Shown here: one piece after another, positions 51,758-61,684 of the stretch
How positions within the stretch are numbered: the stretch's first letter is position 1
Layout: the number at the start of each line of letters is the position of its first letter
Notes under the pieces: generated by a model
Told to the model about the DNA's origin: nothing
Seen by the model: the letters and a program-made list of their open reading frames with translations, nothing else
Database searches by the model: none
Made by a program: the position numbers and the translations under genes
From: Patescibacteria group bacterium
GTDB taxonomy: Bacteria; Patescibacteriota; Microgenomatia; UBA12405
NCBI GenBank assembly: GCA_018902845.1
Contig: JAHIPV010000004.1
Coordinates: forward strand, 1-62,375
Length of the DNA stretch: 62,375 nucleotides
Direction: 5' to 3'

Positions 51758-52402
51758 ATGAAAAAGCCAATTGCGGTACTTTTTGACATGGATGGATTGA
51801 TGGTTGACAGTGAATTGACCAGAGCAGAATCATTTAAGAACGTAATACGAAATCATGGTGTTGTGGTCAAAGAAAAAATACCTCACGTTATTGGAGTAAG
51901 AGTCTTGGACAATTGGGTCATTATGAAAGATAAATATGGTTTAAAAGAAGATCCAGCAAAATTAATGGAAGAAGGGGAAGAAGAATACACTAAGCTAATC
52001 GAGAAAAAAATGCCGATTACCATGCCAGGGCTATTTCAATTAATTGATTATATTAAAAAAGTAAACATCAAAAGAGCGGTAGTTTCATCAGCTGGAATAA
52101 GGCATATTAAGATAAAATTAGAAAAATTAAAATTAACTGATTTTTTTGAAACAATGGTTTCCGGAGATATGCTTACCAAGGGAAAGCCTGATCCAGAAGG
52201 ATATTTGTTAGCAGCAAAAAAACTTGGAGTAGATGCAACAGATTGTCTAGTTCTCGAGGATGCTCCTTCTGGTGTTCAAGCTGCCAAAGCGGCCGGAATG
52301 TTATGTGTTGCGATTCCGAGTACTTATACTAAAAACGGTGATTTTTCTCAGGCGGATTTGATATTAAAAGATCTTAGAGAAGTAATTGCAATATTGAAAT
52401 AA
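51758..52402 (+). CDS. HAD-family hydrolase (beta-phosphoglucomutase-like)
   Basis: LFDMDGLMVDSE, SSAG, KGKPDPEGY, and EDAPSGVQAAKAAGM. Confidence 0.85.
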   Translation: MKKPIAVLFDMDGLMVDSELTRAESFKNVIRNHGVVVKEKIPHVIGVRVLDNWVIMKDKYGLKEDPAKLMEEGEEEYTKLIEKKMPITMPGLFQLIDYIKKVNIKRAVVSSAGIRHIKIKLEKLKLTDFFETMVSGDMLTKGKPDPEGYLLAAKKLGVDATDCLVLEDAPSGVQAAKAAGMLCVAIPSTYTKNGDFSQADLILKDLREVIAILK

Positions 52403-52468
52403 GCATTACATAACCAAGCAAGATTTCATTTTTTTTTACGACAAATTCTAAAAACAAAAATTAAGTTC

Positions 52469-52497
52469 TTGACATCTGTATGACATTGTATTACCAT
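52469..52497 (+). promoter_or_regulatory. candidate promoter/operator of the brnT-remnant/brnA pair
   Basis: TTGACA (52469-52474), 17 nt, then TACCAT. The region contains the direct repeat TGACATCTGTA/TGACATTGTA. Confidence 0.35.
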
Positions 52498-52502
52498 ATA
52501 TT

Positions 52503-52603
52503 ATGGAGTTGAAAGAGCTGGTTTGGGACGATTTTAATATTATATTGTTACTGCTAGAGACTCTAGTAGTAAAGAAAGGAAATTAATAAATGACCAAAAA
52601 TAA
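52503..52603 (+). pseudogene. brnT: decayed brnT (internal deletion plus frameshift)
   Basis: The ATG frame gives MELKELVWDDFN (compare EFQWDKGN of intact BrnT). A second frame gives IVTARDSSSKERKL (compare RVISARDLNKRR) and ends 14 nt inside brnA, mimicking the intact pair's overlap. Confidence 0.45.
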
Positions 52604-52880
52604 AACAAAAACCATTCCAAATTTCAAAAATCGACAGCAAGAAGCCAAGTTTTGGGACACCCACGATTTTACTGATTTTTTGGATCAAACAAAAAAAGTA
52701 AATTTAAAAGTCAATTTAAAAGCACCGAAAGATGGTGTTTTAACTATTAGACTTCAACCCCAACTAAAAAAACACATGAGTCAACTAGCTACAGAAATGG
52801 GTACCCAAACTTCCACCTTAGCCCGTATGTGGCTTATTGAAAAACTAAAGACATTAACTCCTCCGTATCAGTCAACATAA
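52590..52880 (+). CDS. brnA: BrnA-family antitoxin
   Basis: IPNFKNRQQEAKFWDTHDFTDF... parallels 18818..19087. C-terminal RHH-like STLARMWLIEKL. Confidence 0.7.
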   Translation: MTKNKTKTIPNFKNRQQEAKFWDTHDFTDFLDQTKKVNLKVNLKAPKDGVLTIRLQPQLKKHMSQLATEMGTQTSTLARMWLIEKLKTLTPPYQST

Positions 52881-53047
52881 TTATTTTATCCGAATTCATC
52901 GCTCTGTCCCACCTAGCGGACTTTGTCCGCGCACCGCCGACATAGCCTTTGGCGACGCACGGCCGGAGCCAAGCTTTAGCGAGGCCAAGGCGGTGTTTTT
53001 TGATTGATGTTCGAACATTTTTTGACGAAAACCCCCAATAAGGAAGC

Positions 53048-53195
53048 CAGCCCTGCCGTCGCTCGGAAACCTCGCCACCCCGCAAAAAAGTTTTCTTCAC
53101 AATTTTTGATTTGCGCGCGCCGATTTTTTTCTTCTAAAAGGAAAAGAAAACTTTTGTGCGGGGTTCTGCTCTTAACGAGCAGGACGGCGGGGCTG
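53048..53195. other. 148-nt imperfect long hairpin (left flank of the R-M/RT cassette)
   Basis: CAGCCCTGCCGTCGCTCG (53048-53065) pairs with CGAGCAGGACGGCGGGGCTG (53176-53195). ACCCCGCAAAAAAGTTTTC (53077-53095) pairs with GAAAACTTTTGTGCGGGGT (53146-53164). 50-nt apical loop. Confidence 0.65.
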
Positions 53196-53215
53196 TCCAC
53201 AATTTGATTTCGCTC

Positions 53216-53258
53216 GGGCGTGGCGGAATTCCCCCCAAACCCCCCTTCCGCCACGCCC
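53216..53258. other. perfect 13-bp stem hairpin with C-rich loop
   Basis: GGGCGTGGCGGAA (53216-53228) and TTCCGCCACGCCC (53246-53258). Loop TTCCCCCCAAACCCCCC. Confidence 0.75.
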
Positions 53259-53329
53259 TCGCGGGGACGATTCTTTTTTTCGGCGGAATTTGAGGCTGTG
53301 CCAATTTCATTGGCGCGCCACCTTTTGTC

Positions 53330-54067
53330 TTATTTTATCAGATTCCAATTATCAAGGAAATAGTCCATTTCGTGATCCATATTTCCGAGATATACCTTAT
53401 CATTTCTAAACTTTATATTCACACGATAGCGTTTTCCGTGTCCGACTTCCAAAATTGCTTTTTCGTGTACTTTCTTTTCAACTTCGTGAAATGGCAAAAT
53501 CAAAAAATTACTTTTCTTTTCGCCGTGCAAAACAAAAATATAATAAATATTGCCGTTGCTGTGGCGTTCAAATGATACTTTACGAATATCAAAAACATAA
53601 GTGTCAAAACTATTAAGATTTGAAGTTTTGACCTGAATACCAAACAATTGATTATCTTTGACCGCCACAATGTCCATTCCAACATCTACGCTCATTATGC
53701 TGGCATTGAAACCACGAAAAAGCAATTCGCTACATACCAAATGCTCGCCACCTTTTCCAGTAAATCCTCCAGCGATAACAATTTTTTCTTCCTCCTCTTT
53801 TTCCGCTTCAATAATCTTTGGCGTTTCTTTGATTTCTTTTTTGTTTGGATTGAGCGCAAAAGTTCCGGGCGCGGTTTTGATAAAATCCGAGCCTTCAACT
53901 TTGTTTTTAATATCTACCGTGATTTGTGCGTTCATTGACGCTTCCGGCGTCGCGCCCTCTGTTTCCAAGATGCCAGATTCCAAAGCCAGCCGAGTGATTT
54001 CGGTATAGTGCAAAGGCGTTTTTGCCTTTTTTAATATCTCAATCGCAGATTGCTTGAATGTATTCAT
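53330..54067 (-). CDS. HARE-HTH/Mrr_N-like winged-helix + PD-(D/E)xK nuclease-fold protein
   Basis: N-terminus SAIEILKKAKTPLHYTEITRLALESG...APGTFALN. C-terminus GGEHLVCSELLFRG...VDVGMDIVAV...GIQVKTS (E...D...QxK pattern). 5 nt downstream of the RT gene. Confidence 0.6.
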   Translation of the reverse strand: MNTFKQSAIEILKKAKTPLHYTEITRLALESGILETEGATPEASMNAQITVDIKNKVEGSDFIKTAPGTFALNPNKKEIKETPKIIEAEKEEEEKIVIAGGFTGKGGEHLVCSELLFRGFNASIMSVDVGMDIVAVKDNQLFGIQVKTSNLNSFDTYVFDIRKVSFERHSNGNIYYIFVLHGEKKSNFLILPFHEVEKKVHEKAILEVGHGKRYRVNIKFRNDKVYLGNMDHEMDYFLDNWNLIK

Positions 54068-54072
54068 AAATT

Positions 54073-55575
54073 TTAGCTTTCATAACTAAACACTTGTATT
54101 TCCCTTCTCTCAATTTTAGGCTTAATTTTATCTATAACTGCCCGATTAACAAAAACGCCGTTGCTCAATATATCTTTTACTGTTTTTTCGCTTATCCAGT
54201 CGTTTGTAAATATCTTTTGTTTGTAATCTCCATAAGCATATTTGCAAAGAGTCTCGTCAAAATCTAATTTTAATTTCAATCCAAGCGCGATTCTTTGGAT
54301 CCATATTTCCAACAAACCAGCATTCGAAAGTGTCCCTATTTTTTCTTGGACTCTTACTAATAAATCAAGTTGTGATTGCTTTGACAATTTTGGAATATAG
54401 TCAGACATCAAACCAGCAATGAAAGGAAAACAATTCGGGTTATTGTAACCTATATCAATCAGAATTCCAGTTATTGTTTTTTCTTGGTATTTATAATGTT
54501 CTGATTTAACCACATCTATAATTTTTGATAATCTATTTTTTAGAATTCCTGAGTTAGGAAATTTTTTACCGATTTGTTGAATTATCAATAATTGTCGCAG
54601 CAACTCAGTTTTTGATAGTTTTTTAGGAACCAATCCATACTTTAACGAATCAACTTTATCGTCTTTTATTGAGCCACCAATAATATCTTGATTGAAGCAG
54701 GTTTTGTTTGTATTTAAACGAAAACCTAAATCAAGTAACACCTCGCTAAGACTTTTTAGAATAATATCTCCATCGCTAATGTCGTTAACAAAAATTCGAT
54801 AATCGTCTCGGTATCTTAATATAAAGTATTTTTTACTTTCAATAATTTTATTCAATTTTTTCGATAATTCACAATCCGCATATCCTAGAACAATTTCCGC
54901 AATAAAATCCATTAAACTACTTCCTTCTGGTATACCGTTGGTTTGACCATTATTCATTGCCTGAAGATGACAATCAATCTTATTGCCAAACAACTCATTA
55001 TAACCCCTCTTTTCCTTTCCAATTTTTTTTGTATGTATAGCCCATGGCAAAGAGTGGGTATAAATTGATCCATAGCAACTACTGATATCTGTGTGATATA
55101 TAAACTTATAATCTAGTGCCAACGAAATTGATTTTTTTTCTACATTATTTACCCATTGAGTAATCTGCGCCGCTTTTTGCTTTCTCTTTCCCGACGGTAT
55201 TACAGGCATACTTTCACATCTAATATTTTTAGATTTTTGAAATTCCTTAAAACAATTTTGTAAAAACTTCCAGTTATCTTTTTCAGTTATAATGTTGACC
55301 AGCGAAACATACAACAACGGATTTATAATTTGATACTTTCTCCATGCATATTTACCATCCTTATTGCCGTATAAAATGTGATTTATCGTTTCTTTTTCTT
55401 TTGCTTTATTTAAGTCTGATAAATCTAGTACTTTTTTCTTAAATGCCTTATCGGTAGCAGATAAAACATTTTTAAAAACAAAATAATCGGGTAACTCAAT
55501 ATTTGAAAAAACCTCTTGTGTTAAAAAGAATTTTTTGGCATCTGTGTGATTTAGATTAAGAATATTTTTTGCCAT
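54073..55575 (-). CDS. reverse transcriptase (UG/Abi-like: N-terminal RT domain + about 170-aa helical C-terminal domain)
   Basis: Motif A YHTDISSCYGSI (D163 = 55087-55089), motif B NGIPEGSSLMDFIAEIVL, motif C ILRYRDDYRIF (YRDD = 54802-54813), motif E-like LGFRLNTNKT. Confidence 0.8.
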   Translation of the reverse strand: MAKNILNLNHTDAKKFFLTQEVFSNIELPDYFVFKNVLSATDKAFKKKVLDLSDLNKAKEKETINHILYGNKDGKYAWRKYQIINPLLYVSLVNIITEKDNWKFLQNCFKEFQKSKNIRCESMPVIPSGKRKQKAAQITQWVNNVEKKSISLALDYKFIYHTDISSCYGSIYTHSLPWAIHTKKIGKEKRGYNELFGNKIDCHLQAMNNGQTNGIPEGSSLMDFIAEIVLGYADCELSKKLNKIIESKKYFILRYRDDYRIFVNDISDGDIILKSLSEVLLDLGFRLNTNKTCFNQDIIGGSIKDDKVDSLKYGLVPKKLSKTELLRQLLIIQQIGKKFPNSGILKNRLSKIIDVVKSEHYKYQEKTITGILIDIGYNNPNCFPFIAGLMSDYIPKLSKQSQLDLLVRVQEKIGTLSNAGLLEIWIQRIALGLKLKLDFDETLCKYAYGDYKQKIFTNDWISEKTVKDILSNGVFVNRAVIDKIKPKIERREIQVFSYES

Positions 55576-55577
55576 AT

Positions 55578-56753
55578 TTACAATTCACCGTTAAAAGCCC
55601 TTGCCAAAACAGAAGGCATTAAGGCGGTTGTTATCAAAAATTGTTTTGATCTTTCTTTTTTAATTTCTTCTTTTTTATTTTCAATTAAATTTAAATGATC
55701 AATAACTTTTTGTTGCTCAGCAATTGAATCTGGGAAAGAAAATACTAATTTCTTTATTTTGTCTTGATTAAGAATGGGCAATGTAGTTGCGGGGCATAAA
55801 CCTCTTATTGTTGAATAGTTTGCCTTGAACCAGTAATAAGCAAATTCTGGTAATATATTTTCTTTAAATCTAATTCCTGTAATTTGTTGATTTGAAGTCG
55901 CCTCGTTTTTCAAAATCCCTACTTTTCCAAGAGTTGCGCCTATTCCGATAAATAAAACGGTCCCGGCTTTATAAATTTTTACCTTTCCATCATCAATCGC
56001 GAGTTTAGAAATTTTGCGATATGAATTTTCGAGATACATCTGCCCCTTAAAATCAGAAGGGGTGAACCAATTTAGCTCTTCTTTGAAATATTTTTGTTCG
56101 CCTGATGGTGGGGTTGTTCCTGTCTTAATCTCATCAATCAGATCACCTATTTTTTCTTTTTTCCAACCCGTATCGCTAAAAATTTTACTTAAGGCAGATG
56201 GCACAATAGCATTAACCGCTTTTTCAATATAATTTTCTGCATTGATAATTGATTTAGTGCGTTCCTCAATCTCCTTAATCTTTTTTACAATCCGCTTTTG
56301 TTCAAGAAGTGTTGGAAGCAAAATTTCTTTGTTTAAGAATAGTTCTTCTTGCAAATATCTTCTGTTTGTTGCACCTTGACTGGAAGCAATACAAAATTCT
56401 AAGAATTTAGCAGAGTGAGAAAAGTAAAAGAAAAAATCGGGACTAATTTTTGTTAGATCCAATTCGTAAGCCCAAAAATTACCCGTAATAATTCCACCGT
56501 CAGCTTCTTCGGGGATTATGCCGAAAGCACCGTTCCTAGCGTCGATTTTTGATAGCAATAACCAACCTGCTATAACAGTAAATTGATTTTTTGTTCCTAT
56601 TCTCGATCCAACAACTTCATCTCTCACGCAAATGCCTTTATTGTGCATTTTTATAGTAATGCGCTTGTATGTTTTTTTGTCATCAAGAACAATTGTCTCT
56701 TTTTTTCTGAGAAGAAAATCACTAATTTTATATTGCTTCCAATCGCTTTTCAT
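55578..56753 (-). CDS. hsdS: type I restriction-modification specificity subunit
   Basis: 391 aa with two TRD halves separated and ended by conserved helical spacers (LPTLLEQKRIVKKIKEIE, IAEQQKVIDHLNLIE). 2 nt after hsdM. Confidence 0.85.
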   Translation of the reverse strand: MKSDWKQYKISDFLLRKKETIVLDDKKTYKRITIKMHNKGICVRDEVVGSRIGTKNQFTVIAGWLLLSKIDARNGAFGIIPEEADGGIITGNFWAYELDLTKISPDFFFYFSHSAKFLEFCIASSQGATNRRYLQEELFLNKEILLPTLLEQKRIVKKIKEIEERTKSIINAENYIEKAVNAIVPSALSKIFSDTGWKKEKIGDLIDEIKTGTTPPSGEQKYFKEELNWFTPSDFKGQMYLENSYRKISKLAIDDGKVKIYKAGTVLFIGIGATLGKVGILKNEATSNQQITGIRFKENILPEFAYYWFKANYSTIRGLCPATTLPILNQDKIKKLVFSFPDSIAEQQKVIDHLNLIENKKEEIKKERSKQFLITTALMPSVLARAFNGEL

Positions 56754-56755
56754 AG

Positions 56756-58189
56756 CTATTTAATTAAATCCTTTATCTCCGAAAGTAACGATATTATTGT
56801 TTTTTCTGACTCTTCAATTTTAGCAATTAATTCCTCTGGTGGAAGATGCTCAAACTCCGCTTTTTTGTTCGGATTTTTTACATCAAGATTGTAGTTACTT
56901 TTGATAATTTCCTCTACCGGCACAATCCACGATTGTTCGGTTAATTCTTTCTTTTCCCATAATTTTTTGGCTTCTTCAAAATATACGCTCTTGATTGGCT
57001 TTGATTTTGAAAAGTTTTTTAAACCTTCTGGCAACGGCATTTCATAGTAAAAAATTTCTTTTGTTGGTCCTGTTTTTTCAAAAAATAAAATATTTGTCGG
57101 AATGTTCGTATAAGGTGCGAAAGAACCGTTCGGCAAACGGACGATGTGGTGCAAATTAAATTGCTGAAGCAATTCCTTTTTTGTATTTACATAACTTTGA
57201 TCATCAGTTTTGAATAACACGCCTTCGGGGAAGATAATCGCGCACTTTCCGCCGTCTTTAAGTGAGCGCAAACAATGTTGCAAAAATAAAATCTCGGTTT
57301 GAGCAGAAGGATAAGGAAAATTTGACTCAATACCTCGCACAGTTCCGGAAAATGGCGGATTTGTGAGAATGATGTCATATTTTTCGGTGAGGTTGAAAAG
57401 ATTGATTGAAAGCGTGTTCATTTTACGGATATTTGGTGTAGCGATTCCGTTAAGCATCATATTCATCGTTCCCAAAATAAACGGCAATGATTTTAATTCT
57501 TTTCCATAAAAAGATTCTTTTTGCAAAAATTCTTTATCTTTGGTATTTTTTTCTTGCGGACGCATAAAATGATACGCCTCAGTCAAGAAGCCGGACGGCC
57601 CATTGCAAGGGTCATAAATAGTTTGTCCGATTTTTGGAGATATCATTTCCGTCATAAAACGAGCAATAACGCGCGGAGTGTGAAATTCAGCAAGTGGTTT
57701 AATATCTGACGATTTCATGCGAGCAAAAAGACCTTCGTAAATACTGGAAACTGCGAAAGAATCTTCATCGCCAAAAAAGTCCACACTAGCCAACACATCC
57801 ACAACTTCACGGAGTAAATAGCCGTCTTCCATTCTGTTTTGAGTATTGTTGAAAATTTCTGAAATAATTTCTTTTGTGCGATTGCCGGAAAGAGTGCGAA
57901 AATATGGAAAAAGTTTTATTTGCACAAATTCTAAAAGATCTGGTCCTGTAATATAAGAATCCTTGCCAGTCCACACACTCCAGCGATATTCATTATCAAT
58001 ATTACGGTTGTAGGTTTTGCCTTCAAATGTCGCCTTGGCTTCATATTCGTTTTCTATTTCTTCATATACTTTCAAAAACAAAAGCCACGAAAACTGCTCA
58101 ACATACTGCAAAGCGCCCGTTGTTCCGGGGTCTTGGCGCATTTTATTGCATGCGCTCCATAATTTATTTGAAATTGAATCGTTTGCCAT
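56756..58189 (-). CDS. hsdM: type I restriction-modification DNA methyltransferase subunit (N6-adenine)
   Basis: HsdM_N-type N-terminus (LWSACNKMR), motif I DPCNGPSGFL, and catalytic TNPPFSG. Confidence 0.9.
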   Translation of the reverse strand: MANDSISNKLWSACNKMRQDPGTTGALQYVEQFSWLLFLKVYEEIENEYEAKATFEGKTYNRNIDNEYRWSVWTGKDSYITGPDLLEFVQIKLFPYFRTLSGNRTKEIISEIFNNTQNRMEDGYLLREVVDVLASVDFFGDEDSFAVSSIYEGLFARMKSSDIKPLAEFHTPRVIARFMTEMISPKIGQTIYDPCNGPSGFLTEAYHFMRPQEKNTKDKEFLQKESFYGKELKSLPFILGTMNMMLNGIATPNIRKMNTLSINLFNLTEKYDIILTNPPFSGTVRGIESNFPYPSAQTEILFLQHCLRSLKDGGKCAIIFPEGVLFKTDDQSYVNTKKELLQQFNLHHIVRLPNGSFAPYTNIPTNILFFEKTGPTKEIFYYEMPLPEGLKNFSKSKPIKSVYFEEAKKLWEKKELTEQSWIVPVEEIIKSNYNLDVKNPNKKAEFEHLPPEELIAKIEESEKTIISLLSEIKDLIK

Positions 58190-58202
58190 AGTTTATTTTT
58201 CG

Positions 58203-60695
58203 TTAATTTGCATAAATTTTTTCCTGCAAGCGATCAACATTTTGCCGAAGTGCTTGCGGATTGCCGAAGGCTTTTTGCGAATACATAAAGCCGGGCATTG
58301 GATATACATCAAAAACATTGGCTTTTGTAATTTCCGTTACTCCGTTTTCCTGATATTTCAAAAGCAATCCGCTGACAATTTTTTGCTGTTCCTTATTAAG
58401 ACTTTTCAAAAATTCTTGTTCACGATTTAAGACGGCATCAGTTCTTTCTTTTCGTGAGTGCAGATTTTCGCCAAATCCAAGATTCGCCAAAAGATCGTAT
58501 TCATCGGCTTCGGTATTATTGGTGATTTTGGCAAGCATACGGATATGGATACCTTGATTTTCCAATTCAGTAATAAGCTCGTCTCTGGATTCTTGCTTGA
58601 TCCATTGCGTTTTCAATTCATCAGTATTTTTAACAACTTTTCCAATTTCCTCCTTGGAATAAGCAACATATTCTTTAAGCGTTAGCCTTTTGCCTAAAAT
58701 ATCAACTTCAAACATCATTTCATCCTCAATAAAAACAGTAAGACCATGAACTTTTATCGGCGGAACAGGTTTTTTCTGGGCAACTAGCTCAATTTGAATT
58801 TGCTCCTTGTCGCTTATTTGCGTTTCAATGGTAATTTCTCTGTGCTTGAAGCCGTTTGCCGCCACATAGAGTTTTATTTTCCCTTCCGGAATATTGGAAA
58901 AGCTAAATTCACCGCTTGCGTTTGTTCTTGTTTGCGTTTGCTCATTTGGCGATAATTGAATTGTCATCAAGGCATTTTCAACAGGTGCGAGCGAATCTTC
59001 TTCAACAACAATTCCATTAAGAAAATTGATTTTTGGCGTGTCTGGTTTGATTTCGGGCTTGCCCTCAATCCATTCGTCAATCAATCTTGTGGCATTAGTA
59101 TAATCAATTACCCGATACCAAAATTTGCCTTTTTCTTTTGAAATACGACTACCTCGCCCCATAATCTGTTTGAAAACTATTGGCGAGCGTATCGGCTTCA
59201 TAAAAACAATATTTTGAACTGTGGGCGCGTCAAAACCAGTGGAAAGTAAATCAACAGTAGTGGCAACAACTGGAACATTTTGCGCTTGATCTTGAAAAGT
59301 TTTTAGAAGCGCCAATGAGTCAGTTTCTTCTGAGACAATCCGGATTGCATAATTTGGAAAGCCAAGGTAAGCAAAATGATTTTGTAAATGTTTTGCGACT
59401 TCGCCGGCATGCTCCATGGTTACGCAAAAAACAATTGTTTTTTGCATTTCGCCATAAGTTTTAATGAGTCCGGCAAGATGTTCGCACATTTTCTCGGTTC
59501 TATCTGGCAAAATGATACCTTTTTCAAACTGTTCCATTTTGTAAAAATCATTCGGTTCAGCTTCGTCCGGTATTTCGACTCTCGCTCCTTTTTTAACGGC
59601 ATCTTCAATATTTACTCCATCTTTATCAATATTGAGTTTTACTTTGTGAAGCAAAAAGTTAGCAAGAAACCCATCGTCAATTCCTTGTGCCATGCTGTAA
59701 TCGTAAACGGCCTGATTTTCCTTCTTTGGATCACCGAAATATTTGTAGGTGTTTATATTTTCATCTTGTTTCGGCGTTGCGGTCATTCCAAGCTGAATTG
59801 CTGTTGAAAAATGCTTTAGGATTTCGTTCCAAGTACTAAATCCGCTTCTGTGACACTCATCAATCACAATTAAATCAAAAAAATCTTTGGGATACTGCTC
59901 AAAAATTCTTTTTCCGTCTTTTTCGCTCCACATTGCCTGATAAATACTAAAATAAATGTCGCGAGCCGTTGGAGCTTGCCCCTCTTCAATATATCCACGC
60001 GCATTTCCAAATGGTTCAAAAGTATTAAAGGCCTGATCTCGTAAAACATTTCTATCTGCAAGGAATAAAACACGGCGGATTTTCTTTGCCTGTTTTAATT
60101 TCCAAGCGATTTGAAAAGCTATGTTTGTTTTGCCCGTGCCTGTAGCTAGGTTTAATAAAATCCGCTTTTGACCTTTGGAAATTGCTTCAATTGCACGACG
60201 AATAGCGACTTGCTGATAATAGCGAGGGTTGGTATTGAAAGTTTGTTTATTATAAGCGGTAGCGAGTGGCAAAACTTCTGTTTCGGATAATTCTTTCGCT
60301 TTCAAATATCTTCGATAAAGTTCATCTTGCGTTGGAAAAGTTTCAATTGTTTTTTGTGTGTTGTTTGTAAAATCAAATTCTTCAATTTCGTGTCCATTGG
60401 TAGAATACGCAAAAAGTATATCTAGCCGTTCGGCGTATTCTTTGACTTGTTGCATACCGGAAACGGCGGGCTTTCCTTCTTCCTTTGCTTCAACGACTGC
60501 AAGAGGTAGAGCTTCATTGAAATATAAAATGTAATCGGCTTTTTTTGGTTCTTTTCGTTTTGATTCATCGCCAACGAGAAAAATCTTTCCGTCAGTAAAA
60601 TAATATTCACGAGTAATAAAATCTTCAGTCCAGCCGGACTGTTTTATTTTTGGATCAATTATTTTTGCTCTTGTGTCTGCTTCGTTATATGCCAT
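58203..60695 (-). CDS. hsdR: type I restriction enzyme R subunit (EcoEI-like C-terminus) with an inserted carboxypeptidase-regulatory-like beta-sandwich
   Basis: N-terminal NEADTRAKIIDPKI nuclease region, helicase motifs LATGTGKT / VIDECHR / MTATP / QIMGRGSR. Insert NALMTIQL...TNASGEFSFSNIPEGKIKLYVAANGF (about 58815-59020). Confidence 0.9.
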   Translation of the reverse strand: MAYNEADTRAKIIDPKIKQSGWTEDFITREYYFTDGKIFLVGDESKRKEPKKADYILYFNEALPLAVVEAKEEGKPAVSGMQQVKEYAERLDILFAYSTNGHEIEEFDFTNNTQKTIETFPTQDELYRRYLKAKELSETEVLPLATAYNKQTFNTNPRYYQQVAIRRAIEAISKGQKRILLNLATGTGKTNIAFQIAWKLKQAKKIRRVLFLADRNVLRDQAFNTFEPFGNARGYIEEGQAPTARDIYFSIYQAMWSEKDGKRIFEQYPKDFFDLIVIDECHRSGFSTWNEILKHFSTAIQLGMTATPKQDENINTYKYFGDPKKENQAVYDYSMAQGIDDGFLANFLLHKVKLNIDKDGVNIEDAVKKGARVEIPDEAEPNDFYKMEQFEKGIILPDRTEKMCEHLAGLIKTYGEMQKTIVFCVTMEHAGEVAKHLQNHFAYLGFPNYAIRIVSEETDSLALLKTFQDQAQNVPVVATTVDLLSTGFDAPTVQNIVFMKPIRSPIVFKQIMGRGSRISKEKGKFWYRVIDYTNATRLIDEWIEGKPEIKPDTPKINFLNGIVVEEDSLAPVENALMTIQLSPNEQTQTRTNASGEFSFSNIPEGKIKLYVAANGFKHREITIETQISDKEQIQIELVAQKKPVPPIKVHGLTVFIEDEMMFEVDILGKRLTLKEYVAYSKEEIGKVVKNTDELKTQWIKQESRDELITELENQGIHIRMLAKITNNTEADEYDLLANLGFGENLHSRKERTDAVLNREQEFLKSLNKEQQKIVSGLLLKYQENGVTEITKANVFDVYPMPGFMYSQKAFGNPQALRQNVDRLQEKIYAN

Positions 60696-60699
60696 ATTT

Positions 60700-60900
60700 T
60701 TATTTAAACAATTCTGCCGTCTCCACGCCGAGGGCTTTGGCTAGTTTTTCCAATGTGTCCACCGTAGGATTCGGACTTTCGCCTGTTTCTATCTTAACAA
60801 CGGTATTTAACGCCAAATCAGCGTCTTTTGAGAGGCGATCTTGTGAGATTCCTTTTTTGATTCGCAATTTGCGGATATTTTCGCTAACTGTATTTGCCAT
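60700..60900 (-). CDS. XRE-family helix-turn-helix regulator (controller-protein-like position)
   Basis: 66 aa with IRKLRIKKGISQDRLSKDADLALNTVVKIE (HTH_3). Stop lies 4 nt before the hsdR start. Confidence 0.8.
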   Translation of the reverse strand: MANTVSENIRKLRIKKGISQDRLSKDADLALNTVVKIETGESPNPTVDTLEKLAKALGVETAELFK

Positions 60901-60922
60901 ATTGGTTTGACTTTGATAAACT

Positions 60923-60952
60923 ATTATAATACACTACTTATATTGAGTGTAT
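60923..60952 (-). promoter_or_regulatory. candidate -10 box plus 7-bp-arm palindromic operator upstream of the XRE gene
   Basis: Minus-strand TATAAT (60923-60928). ATACACT (60929-60935) - 10 nt - AGTGTAT (60946-60952). Confidence 0.4.
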
Positions 60953-61134
60953 ATCAACTTGCTTAATACAATGGTATCAAAAATATTAAAATTTGGCAAA
61001 CAAAAAGGGAGTTCATTCGACACAACGCGCGCACGGGTGGGTGGGGCAAGCGTTATTCCTCTTTTATCTTCTCTTTTGTTTTCTGTCCCGCCGTCCGTCC
61101 GCCGAAAAGTTTTGGGGGCGAAGCCAAAGCAGGC

Positions 61135-61175
61135 GGGCAAAAAGGAAGGGGGTTGGGGGGAAGGAATTTTTGCCC
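61135..61175. other. 9-bp stem hairpin with G-rich loop (mirror of 53216..53258)
   Basis: GGGCAAAAA (61135-61143) and TTTTTGCCC (61167-61175). Loop GGAAGGGGGTTGGGGGGAAGGAA. Confidence 0.7.
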
Positions 61176-61194
61176 TTTTGCGATTCAGAATAGA

Positions 61195-61349
61195 GCGTTT
61201 CCGCTTTTCTCTGATTAAGAGAAAACCAAAACAGAAAATTTTTCATCTCCTATTAAAAGAAAAAAATGGGGTGCAGAAAAAAATAAAAAATGTAATGAAA
61301 AAATTTCTGTTTTGGTTTGCCGTAGAGGAGCGGAGGCAAGCGGAAACGC
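61195..61349. other. 155-nt imperfect long hairpin (right flank of the R-M/RT cassette)
   Basis: GCGTTTCCGCTT (61195-61206) pairs with AAGCGGAAACGC (61338-61349). AAACCAAAACAGAAAATTTTTCAT (61223-61246) pairs with ATGAAAAAATTTCTGTTTTGGTTT (61295-61318) at 23/24 positions. 48-nt A-rich apical loop. Confidence 0.7.
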
Positions 61350-61684
61350 ACATCATTATTCTGGATTCTGTTCAAAAAAAGTTAGAATTTCAACCAAAAG
61401 GTACCGCCATGAAAAAATCAGAGTATGACCTCTGGTTTTTTCATTTATGATGATATTAGTTGTGATGGAAGAAGGTGGGAATATGGTATGATGCAAATAT
61501 ATGACAAATGGAGAAGTTACAATGAACGAACTCATGGATTTTTTGGTGGAAAATGTGGCTACCAACAGAGATGCATCAGATGGAACATCGGATATTGGAT
61601 ACCATTTCTACATTTAATGGCGTAGAATTATAATTTTATTCACAGACCACCTCACGTATATTTTCTTACCCTGACGATACCGCA

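Follow-up and report, generated by a model that had tools for sequence, protein, structure and literature searches.

Here we describe an Abi-P2-family reverse-transcriptase-like DNA polymerase (RT) that is encoded as the fifth gene of a tight six-gene restriction-modification (R-M) operon. The gene resides on contig JAHIPV010000004.1 of a Patescibacteria group bacterium (assembly GCA_018902845.1), of which positions 1 to 62,375 were analysed as one stretch, referred to below as the window. The Abi-P2 family itself is known, and the new point is the R-M operon setting of the RT together with the repeat-flanked cassette that frames it. The protein is an intact, divergent member of the family that has kept every functional residue at approximately 33% identity to the characterised enzyme. 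Judged from its sequence and by analogy to Abi-P2, its most likely role is protein-primed, template-independent synthesis of single-stranded DNA (ssDNA) for abortive infection.

Family Assignment of the Polymerase

A first-pass annotation, made from the letters of the window, had read the gene as a class 1 UG/Abi RT and considered its group impossible to assign by eye. The class holds, and by profile and predicted fold the group is Abi-P2. The PADLOC AbiP2 profile (PDLC03744) aligned over its positions 4-486 of 489 with residues 2-499 of the RT (560 bits, E 9.6e-169). The next profiles, Drt6, UG14 and Drt4, reached 176-186 bits (Drt6 186), and below them were AbiK (92 bits) and AbiA (36 bits), the latter matching the RT core only. 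In Pfam, RVT_1 alone was above the cut-off (E 2.8e-10); neither a maturase/En nor a HEPN domain was found there, as had been noted by eye. The top match among PDB sequences was 7r08 (E 2.7e-69; query residues 3-456 vs. 33-487 of the chain), which is the Abi-P2 of E. coli (Figiel et al., 2022, PMC9508834). The founding genes of the family, ORF570 of phage P2-EC30 and its counterpart in phage P2-EC58, are 33-34% identical to the RT over 99-100% of the length.

The structure of the RT was predicted with AlphaFold2 as a monomer from a 22-sequence alignment (mean predicted local distance difference test score, pLDDT, 89.1; predicted template modelling score, pTM, 0.89). In the model the motif A strand occupies residues 158-165, the YRDD box is on a beta-hairpin at 250-263, and an all-helical C-terminal domain (298-493) stands in place of the thumb/RT7. 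The closest PDB structure in Foldseek was again Abi-P2 7r08, with a template modelling (TM) score of 0.83/0.85 and E 4e-30. The scores then fell from DRT6 (0.66) and DRT4/UG15 (0.63) to AbiK (about 0.5) and AbiA (about 0.45), and were 0.3-0.4 for the RTs of group II introns (0.32-0.39), retrons (about 0.3), diversity-generating retroelements and DRT2/DRT9. Two findings had been named in advance as speaking against a class 1 RT, namely a best profile match to group II intron or retron RTs and a predicted fold devoid of a palm. Intron and retron models were negligible (36.7 bits vs. a cut-off of 300 for the group II intron RT/maturase model TIGR04416), and the canonical palm elements are present, with the placement of D163, D257 and D258 in the palm judged from secondary structure and superposition score. 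The NCBIfam Drt2-5 models were also all far under their cut-offs (Drt4, 130 bits vs. 450).

Abi-P2 (P2-EC30 ORF570, 7r08) and the RT are of the same length class and share a three-part architecture, a helical C-terminal domain, a YRDD box with the family-specific Arg and a priming Tyr in an N-terminal loop. The RT differs in being approximately 30 residues shorter at the N-terminus, in addition to the sequence divergence given above. The settings are different as well: Abi-P2 is alone in a P2 prophage hotspot, whereas the uncultivated, low-GC bacterium of the present study carries the RT in an R-M operon within a repeat-flanked island. DRT4 (UG15) and DRT6 are, similarly to the RT, single-gene class 1 proteins with an RT and a helical domain, and they gave the second-best profile and fold matches, although these were much weaker. 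Both are hexameric and perform protein-primed, template-independent ssDNA synthesis (PMC12783706), and they offer the best current model for how untemplated ssDNA leads to abortive infection. The Abi polymerases AbiK and AbiA of Lactococcus are protein-primed and synthesise DNA without a template. The palm and helical plan is common to them and the RT, but their bit and TM scores are lower still and the C-terminal HEPN domain of AbiA is absent from the RT according to Pfam.

Catalytic and Priming Residues

The open reading frame (ORF) and the motifs reported at first pass were all located by script at the same positions (Table 1). Motif A, HTDISSCYGSIY, covers residues 161-172 and motif B, GIPEGSSLMDFIAEIVL, residues 214-230, while RYRDDYRIF is at 254-262 and LGFRLNTNKT at 283-292. 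The protein can be divided into fingers with a priming loop (~1-150), palm (~150-296) and helical domain (~297-500). Two details of the earlier description have to be changed. The first ~150 residues had been called an N-terminal extension, which they are not, because the alignment of query residues 3-456 with 33-487 of 7r08 runs through them; they correspond residue for residue to the fingers and priming loop of Abi-P2. The C-terminal tail is indeed helical, but it is approximately 200 aa long rather than the ~170 aa estimated (model helices 298-493).

Residue conservation was assessed in a MAFFT alignment of 79 sequences including P2-EC30. D163, R256, D257 and D258 are unchanged in all of them, and the column of Y31 is occupied by Tyr in each of the 78 homologues that cover it. 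In both HMMER and MAFFT alignments Y31 of the RT, in the context ELPDY, pairs with Y61 of Abi-P2, in ELPAY, and the dispensable Y46 of Abi-P2 pairs with F16. The Y61F substitution abolishes DNA synthesis by Abi-P2 and Y46F does not (Figiel et al., 2022, PMC9508834); template-free DNA synthesis by Abi-P2 and the role of its active site were established experimentally in the same study. The Abi-P2 group is set apart by a conserved Arg within Y/FxDD (Simon and Zimmerly, PMC2602772), which the RT has as R256 of YRDD. The identical RT protein is encoded on 19 contigs, and all relatives at 60-90% identity have retained approximately 500 aa.

Operon Organisation

The RT is the fifth of six minus-strand genes (Table 1), a setting that the first-pass annotation had missed. 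The gaps between the genes for the XRE-family helix-turn-helix (HTH) protein, HsdR, HsdM, HsdS, the RT and a 245-aa protein are 4, 13, 2, 2 and 5 nt, respectively, which means that the hsdS stop is 2 nt ahead of the RT start and the 245-aa gene 5 nt past the RT stop. Thus the RT has the place of a fifth gene in an R-M operon instead of the stand-alone P2-like prophage hotspot of the classic Abi-P2. The XRE-HTH gene, whose homologues are at the operon head in at least 10 other islands, encodes a probable controller protein, and two promoter-like sites are located near it. The HsdR subunit contains the Pfam domains ResIII and EcoEI_R_C. On the other side of the operon, a terminator scan of the minus strand gave no convincing intrinsic terminator 3' of the 245-aa gene. 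The GC content of the RT gene (0.30) is the lowest in the operon, with 0.37-0.38 for hsdR, hsdM and the 245-aa gene, and suggests that the RT was acquired separately.

No room is left for a non-coding RNA (ncRNA) beside the RT, because the flanking gaps are only 2 and 5 nt. No Rfam family was detected in the window at gathering thresholds, and at E <= 1 the region 52300-53500 contained nothing credible, MIR6445 at 23 bits being a chance match. A tRNA scan of the window found none. The absence of retron and intron hallmarks remarked on at first pass is therefore borne out by the Rfam search as well as by the intron model score and the TM scores of 0.3-0.4.

Table 1. Coordinates of the polymerase gene, its key codons and the surrounding features in the window.
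Feature	Position	Strand	Characteristics
Abi-P2-family RT-like DNA polymerase	54073..55575	-	single ORF, 500 aa, ATG start
Tyr31 codon, predicted priming tyrosine	55483..55485	-	aligned with Abi-P2 Tyr61
Asp163 codon, motif A catalytic Asp	55087..55089	-	located by motif script; invariant 79/79
YRDD box, Y255 R256 D257 D258, motif C	54802..54813	-	invariant 79/79; D257 codon 54805-54807, D258 codon 54802-54804
XRE-family HTH, operon head	60700..60900	-	66 aa; Pfam HTH_3 E 5.6e-14
hsdR, EcoAI-family type I restriction subunit	58203..60695	-	830 aa; NCBIfam restrict_EcoAI 730.8 bits vs. cut-off 550
hsdM, type I methyltransferase	56756..58189	-	477 aa; Pfam N6_Mtase, HsdM_N; PADLOC MTase_I E 8e-146
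hsdS, type I specificity subunit	55578..56753	-	391 aa; Pfam Methylase_S x2; PADLOC Specificity_I E 1e-47
HARE-HTH + PD-(D/E)XK-fold protein, last operon gene	53330..54067	-	245 aa; Pfam HARE-HTH E 1.9e-18, PDDEXK_5 E 1e-3
Promoter-like sites near operon head	60999-60971; 60953-60926	-	
Island	53263-61143		7.9 kb, between the inverted repeats
Left GC-rich terminal inverted repeat	52990..53262	+	~273 nt; two long hairpins; nhmmer E 5e-96 (seed copy)
Right, more diverged inverted copy	61144..61407	-	nhmmer E 2.8e-19, model positions 1-260
CopG/BrnA-type antitoxin-like gene	52590-52880	+	outside island; Pfam CopG_antitoxin E 3e-13
GC-rich contig end	61700-62375		GC rises from ~0.4 to 0.79

Restriction-Modification Genes at Related Loci

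Loci of 80 related RTs were collected from contigs representing one genome per species and many phyla; with 38-65% identity to the query they are its best matches and not the whole family. ORFs were called, neighbours were clustered by BLAST and representatives annotated, and the neighbour counts are lower bounds. In 32 of the 78 loci with a complete RT ORF, hsdM/hsdS are found upstream on the same strand. Where at least 4 kb of upstream sequence was available (47 loci), 23 loci have hsdM/hsdS and five a type III-like pair of ResIII helicase and N6_N4 methylase, giving 28 in total (60%). Long flanks on both sides were present in 32 loci, of which 11 have the order hsdM-hsdS-RT-(0-4 genes)-hsdR and four share the hsdR-hsdM-hsdS-RT order of the window. 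In a dozen loci hsdS and the RT gene overlap by 4 nt.

In a neighbour-joining tree the R-M-linked RTs are scattered over the whole environmental clade, and the genes of P2 prophages form an outlying branch. The RT of the window clusters with sequences from metagenome-assembled genomes (MAGs) of the candidate phyla radiation (CPR) and DPANN (L001-L007), all of which are located behind type I or type III R-M genes. Other R-M types are involved as well: a relative 85% identical to the RT follows a type II pair of MutH-like endonuclease and C5 methylase, and a copy on a Pediococcus plasmid is directly upstream of a type IIG-like gene. The enterobacterial copies occur singly in the P2 hotspot, where P2-like prophages carry them between their portal and replication genes.

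AbiP2 has been classed among the multi-domain stand-alone class 1 proteins (Mestre et al., 2022), and no conserved flanking genes were found in 2008 (Simon and Zimmerly, PMC2602772). The embedding of defence genes in R-M operons is an established concept, as documented for PrrC (PMC12707154), TgvAB and others (Payne et al., 2024). Similarly to the RT, PrrC in EcoprrI and TgvAB in a type I R-M locus of Vibrio cholerae are defence genes inserted into, and co-transcribed within, an R-M operon, although these and the other embedded genes (Payne et al., 2024) belong to different protein families. A physical guard relation is established for PrrC; the RT resembles it in gene position. No statement that Abi-P2 is typically R-M-embedded was found in the literature text and supplements searched, including those of the embedding survey (Payne et al., 2024), where Abi-P2 is not named; figures and other papers may hold one.

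Two further observations were made on related RTs. In other phyla, DUF1828 genes (L011, L013, L018, L028, L038) and RhuM-family genes (L005, L038, L042, L053) are repeatedly found in the hsdS-to-hsdR interval together with an Abi-P2-like RT. Also, full-length Abi-P2-like RTs are present on contigs binned as archaeal, namely L001 (Pacearchaeota MAG), L010 (Promethearchaeota MAG) and P0085 (Lokiarchaeota); these contigs are short or MAG-derived and may be misbinned. According to a review from 2021, Archaea had yielded no Abi system with an RT.

The 245-aa Gene and the Passenger Slot

For the last operon gene more than 790 homologues were found, and nearly all of the top 120 clusters are exactly 245 aa long and 74-96% identical. 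Its conservation far exceeds that of the RT and that of the XRE-HTH gene at the operon head; the latter is 35-58% identical in the same loci. In an AlphaFold2 model (pLDDT 80) the protein consists of a winged HTH (residues 1-72) and a PD-(D/E)XK-like domain (104-245), and E108, D128/D132 and Q145xK147 are invariant. Foldseek gave modest matches to the nuclease domain of SPARDA, archaeal Hjc, DpnI and PvuII. Candidate roles for the protein are those of a type IV-like nuclease, of a regulator and of a recombination protein. The idea that the gene belongs to a syntenic host background and marks a hotspot of integration was rejected, as the downstream neighbours differ in every locus.

A sample of 80 metagenomic loci (L097-L176), on CPR-like contigs, was collected for this gene. 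In all 80 it ends an R-M operon, often one headed by an XRE-HTH gene, and in none is there an RT. The R-M genes ahead of it are of type I (with three HsdR families), III, IIG or II. Because all 80 loci place it behind R-M genes and lack an RT, the 245-aa gene belongs to the frame of the island and not to the RT. The R-M genes are usually separated from the 245-aa gene by a single gene that varies between loci, and in the window this slot is filled by the RT. Elsewhere it contains DUF2130 (nine loci), a trypsin-like protease (six loci), a CBASS cyclase with NucC (PADLOC E 2e-70 and 2e-75), Shedu SduA (E 2e-53), a Schlafen/AlbA_2 protein, DUF3800 or unannotated genes. The RT is thus one swappable second-line defence gene in an R-M operon slot.

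Another nuclease gene, of the PDDEXK_1 family, is usual directly 3' of the RT in the clade closest to the RT of the window (L002, L004, L006, L007, L008, L010, L073 and L095). Its products are 249-251 aa long (219 aa in L095) and unrelated in sequence to the 245-aa protein; homology of the 245-aa protein and a 249-aa PDDEXK_1 protein was considered and rejected (BLASTP E 31). This pairing of RT and PDDEXK_1 nuclease may be clade-specific.

Island Boundaries and Possible Mobility

The operon is contained in a 7.9-kb island between inverted repeats of approximately 273 nt, the left of which is 66 nt beyond the 245-aa gene (Table 1). The right repeat aligns to the left one with a local score of 55, compared with 19.7 +/- 2.2 for shuffled sequences. 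Copies 79-98% identical are found at islands with other cargo, at both ends in L126 (6109-6381 and 10806-11078) and also in L118, L122 and L180. In total the repeat was detected in 12 of the 80 loci with the 245-aa gene, and also in L180/L181 and in the source contigs of the window. In L081-L088 and L006 the homology is confined to the 245-aa ORF and the flanks differ; an initial view that the flanks of this gene are unconserved was wrong for the sub-lineage of the window, in which the repeat recurs. The repeat has no match in Rfam. These sequences may be recombination sites, or they may form the terminal inverted repeats of a cassette that is mobile or invertible.

Contig L179 and the window agree at 100% identity down to position 53264 and differ beyond it. 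For L180 and L181 the identity is 99.98% as far as 61175, from where they diverge. Because these contigs are identical inside the island and divergent in their flanks, the island is present in several contexts, and across contigs with differing flanks it is at least 99.97% identical. This suggests recent movement of the island, with assembly chimeras at the repeats of these metagenomes as a possible confounder of the comparison. In L180 a 501-aa large serine recombinase is encoded just outside the repeat, and serine recombinases flank islands with the 245-aa gene in seven other loci.

Beyond the island, on the low-coordinate side, there are ordinary-looking cellular genes, such as those for a HAD hydrolase, a ZIP transporter and peptidases. 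The CopG/BrnA-type antitoxin-like gene also found here has no toxin partner among the adjacent listed ORFs of at least 50 aa. At the opposite end of the window, from 61700 on, the GC content reaches 0.79 vs. 0.36 overall and all frames are open. This segment matched nothing in Pfam or Rfam and does not resemble any of the fetched loci, and may be a foreign fragment or a contig-end assembly artefact. GC skew is strongly negative, and almost uniformly so, across the window, and the cumulative skew drops steadily to about -16.

Proposed Mechanism and Alternatives

With the family membership, the intact catalytic and priming residues, the fold, the operon layout and the recurrent R-M linkage in hand, we consider the RT to be an autonomous Abi-P2-type abortive-infection polymerase that is co-regulated and co-transferred as a second line behind R-M, with a probability of roughly 70%. 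By analogy to E. coli Abi-P2, the RT would assemble as trimers or hexamers, the hydroxyl of Tyr31 would serve as the primer, and the palm with D163, D257 and D258 would make ssDNA of essentially random sequence in a template-free reaction. The C-terminal helical domain would hold the nascent strand in the place of a template. As in DRT4 and DRT6, for which a trigger logic of ssDNA, exonuclease and phage DNA-binding protein has been described (PMC12783706), the ssDNA would normally be cleared by a host exonuclease; during infection a phage DNA-binding protein would stabilise it, and the resulting toxicity would abort the infection. Mechanistically the RT would act independently of the R-M system with which it is co-regulated and co-transferred.

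Several points weigh against this proposal. Enzymatic activity, oligomeric state, trigger and abortive outcome are properties that we infer for a protein only about 33% identical to the characterised Abi-P2. The trigger model is borrowed from DRT4/DRT6 and not from Abi-P2 itself, and the proposed oligomers stand beside a structure prediction for the monomer only. In addition, hsdS and the RT are tightly coupled, by a 2-nt gap in the window and by ATGA overlaps at other loci, and this could reflect a functional tie to the R-M complex and not mere co-regulation.

Such a tie is part of a wider, unlikely reading, in which the RT is wired into the island either as an R-M guard or with the HARE-HTH/PD-(D/E)XK protein as its partner, and the island is an undescribed mobile or invertible defence cassette of CPR bacteria. 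The layout of the island is inverted repeat, XRE-HTH, R-M genes, swappable Abi-type gene, HARE-HTH nuclease and inverted repeat, and in this reading the exchange of cargo would be driven by the terminal nuclease or by a nearby large serine recombinase.

Each kind of wiring can also be judged separately. As a guard resembling PrrC, the RT would be held inactive by contact with the type I R-M complex and set free once an anti-restriction protein of a phage had put that complex out of action. EcoprrI provides the precedent of an Abi gene within a type I locus that senses its inhibition (PMC12707154). The order hsdR-hsdM-hsdS-RT with its 2-nt gap amounts to embedding in a type I operon, placement directly after hsdS recurs (28 of 47 loci) with frequent overlaps, and the embedded state extends across the whole environmental clade. 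However, in the clade of the window itself the RT is combined with R-M systems of types I, II, III and IIG, which share no protein partner, and the same slot can hold CBASS, Shedu or other autonomous systems unrelated to the RT. Moreover, the founding Abi-P2 genes protect E. coli while being alone in the P2 prophage hotspot, and purified Abi-P2 works alone (PMC9508834). We regard a guard function as rather improbable.

Quite improbable, too, is a two-gene system similar to UG7, with the downstream PD-(D/E)XK-fold protein as the effector and the RT or its DNA as the sensor. The class 1 group UG7 does have a PD-(D/E)XK partner (Mestre et al.), the nuclease-fold gene of the window is only 5 nt past the RT, and a PDDEXK_1 gene directly follows the RT in eight of the closest loci and in L095. 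Yet the 245-aa gene was without an RT, and always behind R-M genes, in its entire sample; its sequence is not similar to that of the 249-aa PDDEXK_1 protein; neither nuclease is present at most Abi-P2-like loci; and Abi-P2 is classed as stand-alone (Mestre et al., 2022). Both the guard and the two-gene system are less likely than the autonomous polymerase because the close relatives trail R-M genes of unrelated types and the 245-aa gene is found where there is no RT.

An RNA-templated RT of the retron, group II intron or DRT2/DRT9-like kind, the last with a neighbouring ncRNA, is effectively refuted, since against the generic RVT_1 match, its sole support, stand an intron model and Drt2, Drt3a and Drt5 models far under their cut-offs, the lack of any Rfam family, the short gaps and the low TM scores. 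That the RT is a decaying or inactive passenger with no present function is suggested by its low GC content but is very improbable in view of the full-length ORF, the match over the whole profile, the intact functional residues, the identical copies on 19 contigs and the constant length of its relatives.

Implications for the Abi-P2 Family

A divergent Abi-P2 polymerase from poorly studied uncultivated bacteria is hereby added to the family. Unlike the lone prophage genes of the textbook case, the sampled environmental relatives are mostly tail genes of R-M operons, which suggests that the usual natural setting of the Abi-P2 family is that of a back-up behind restriction. Whether an untemplated DNA polymerase cooperates with R-M or merely travels along with it has thereby become a testable question. 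The uncharacterised occupants of the slot are candidates for new defence genes, and the repeat-flanked cassette with a variable slot beside a near-invariant nuclease may help to find defence genes in CPR genomes.

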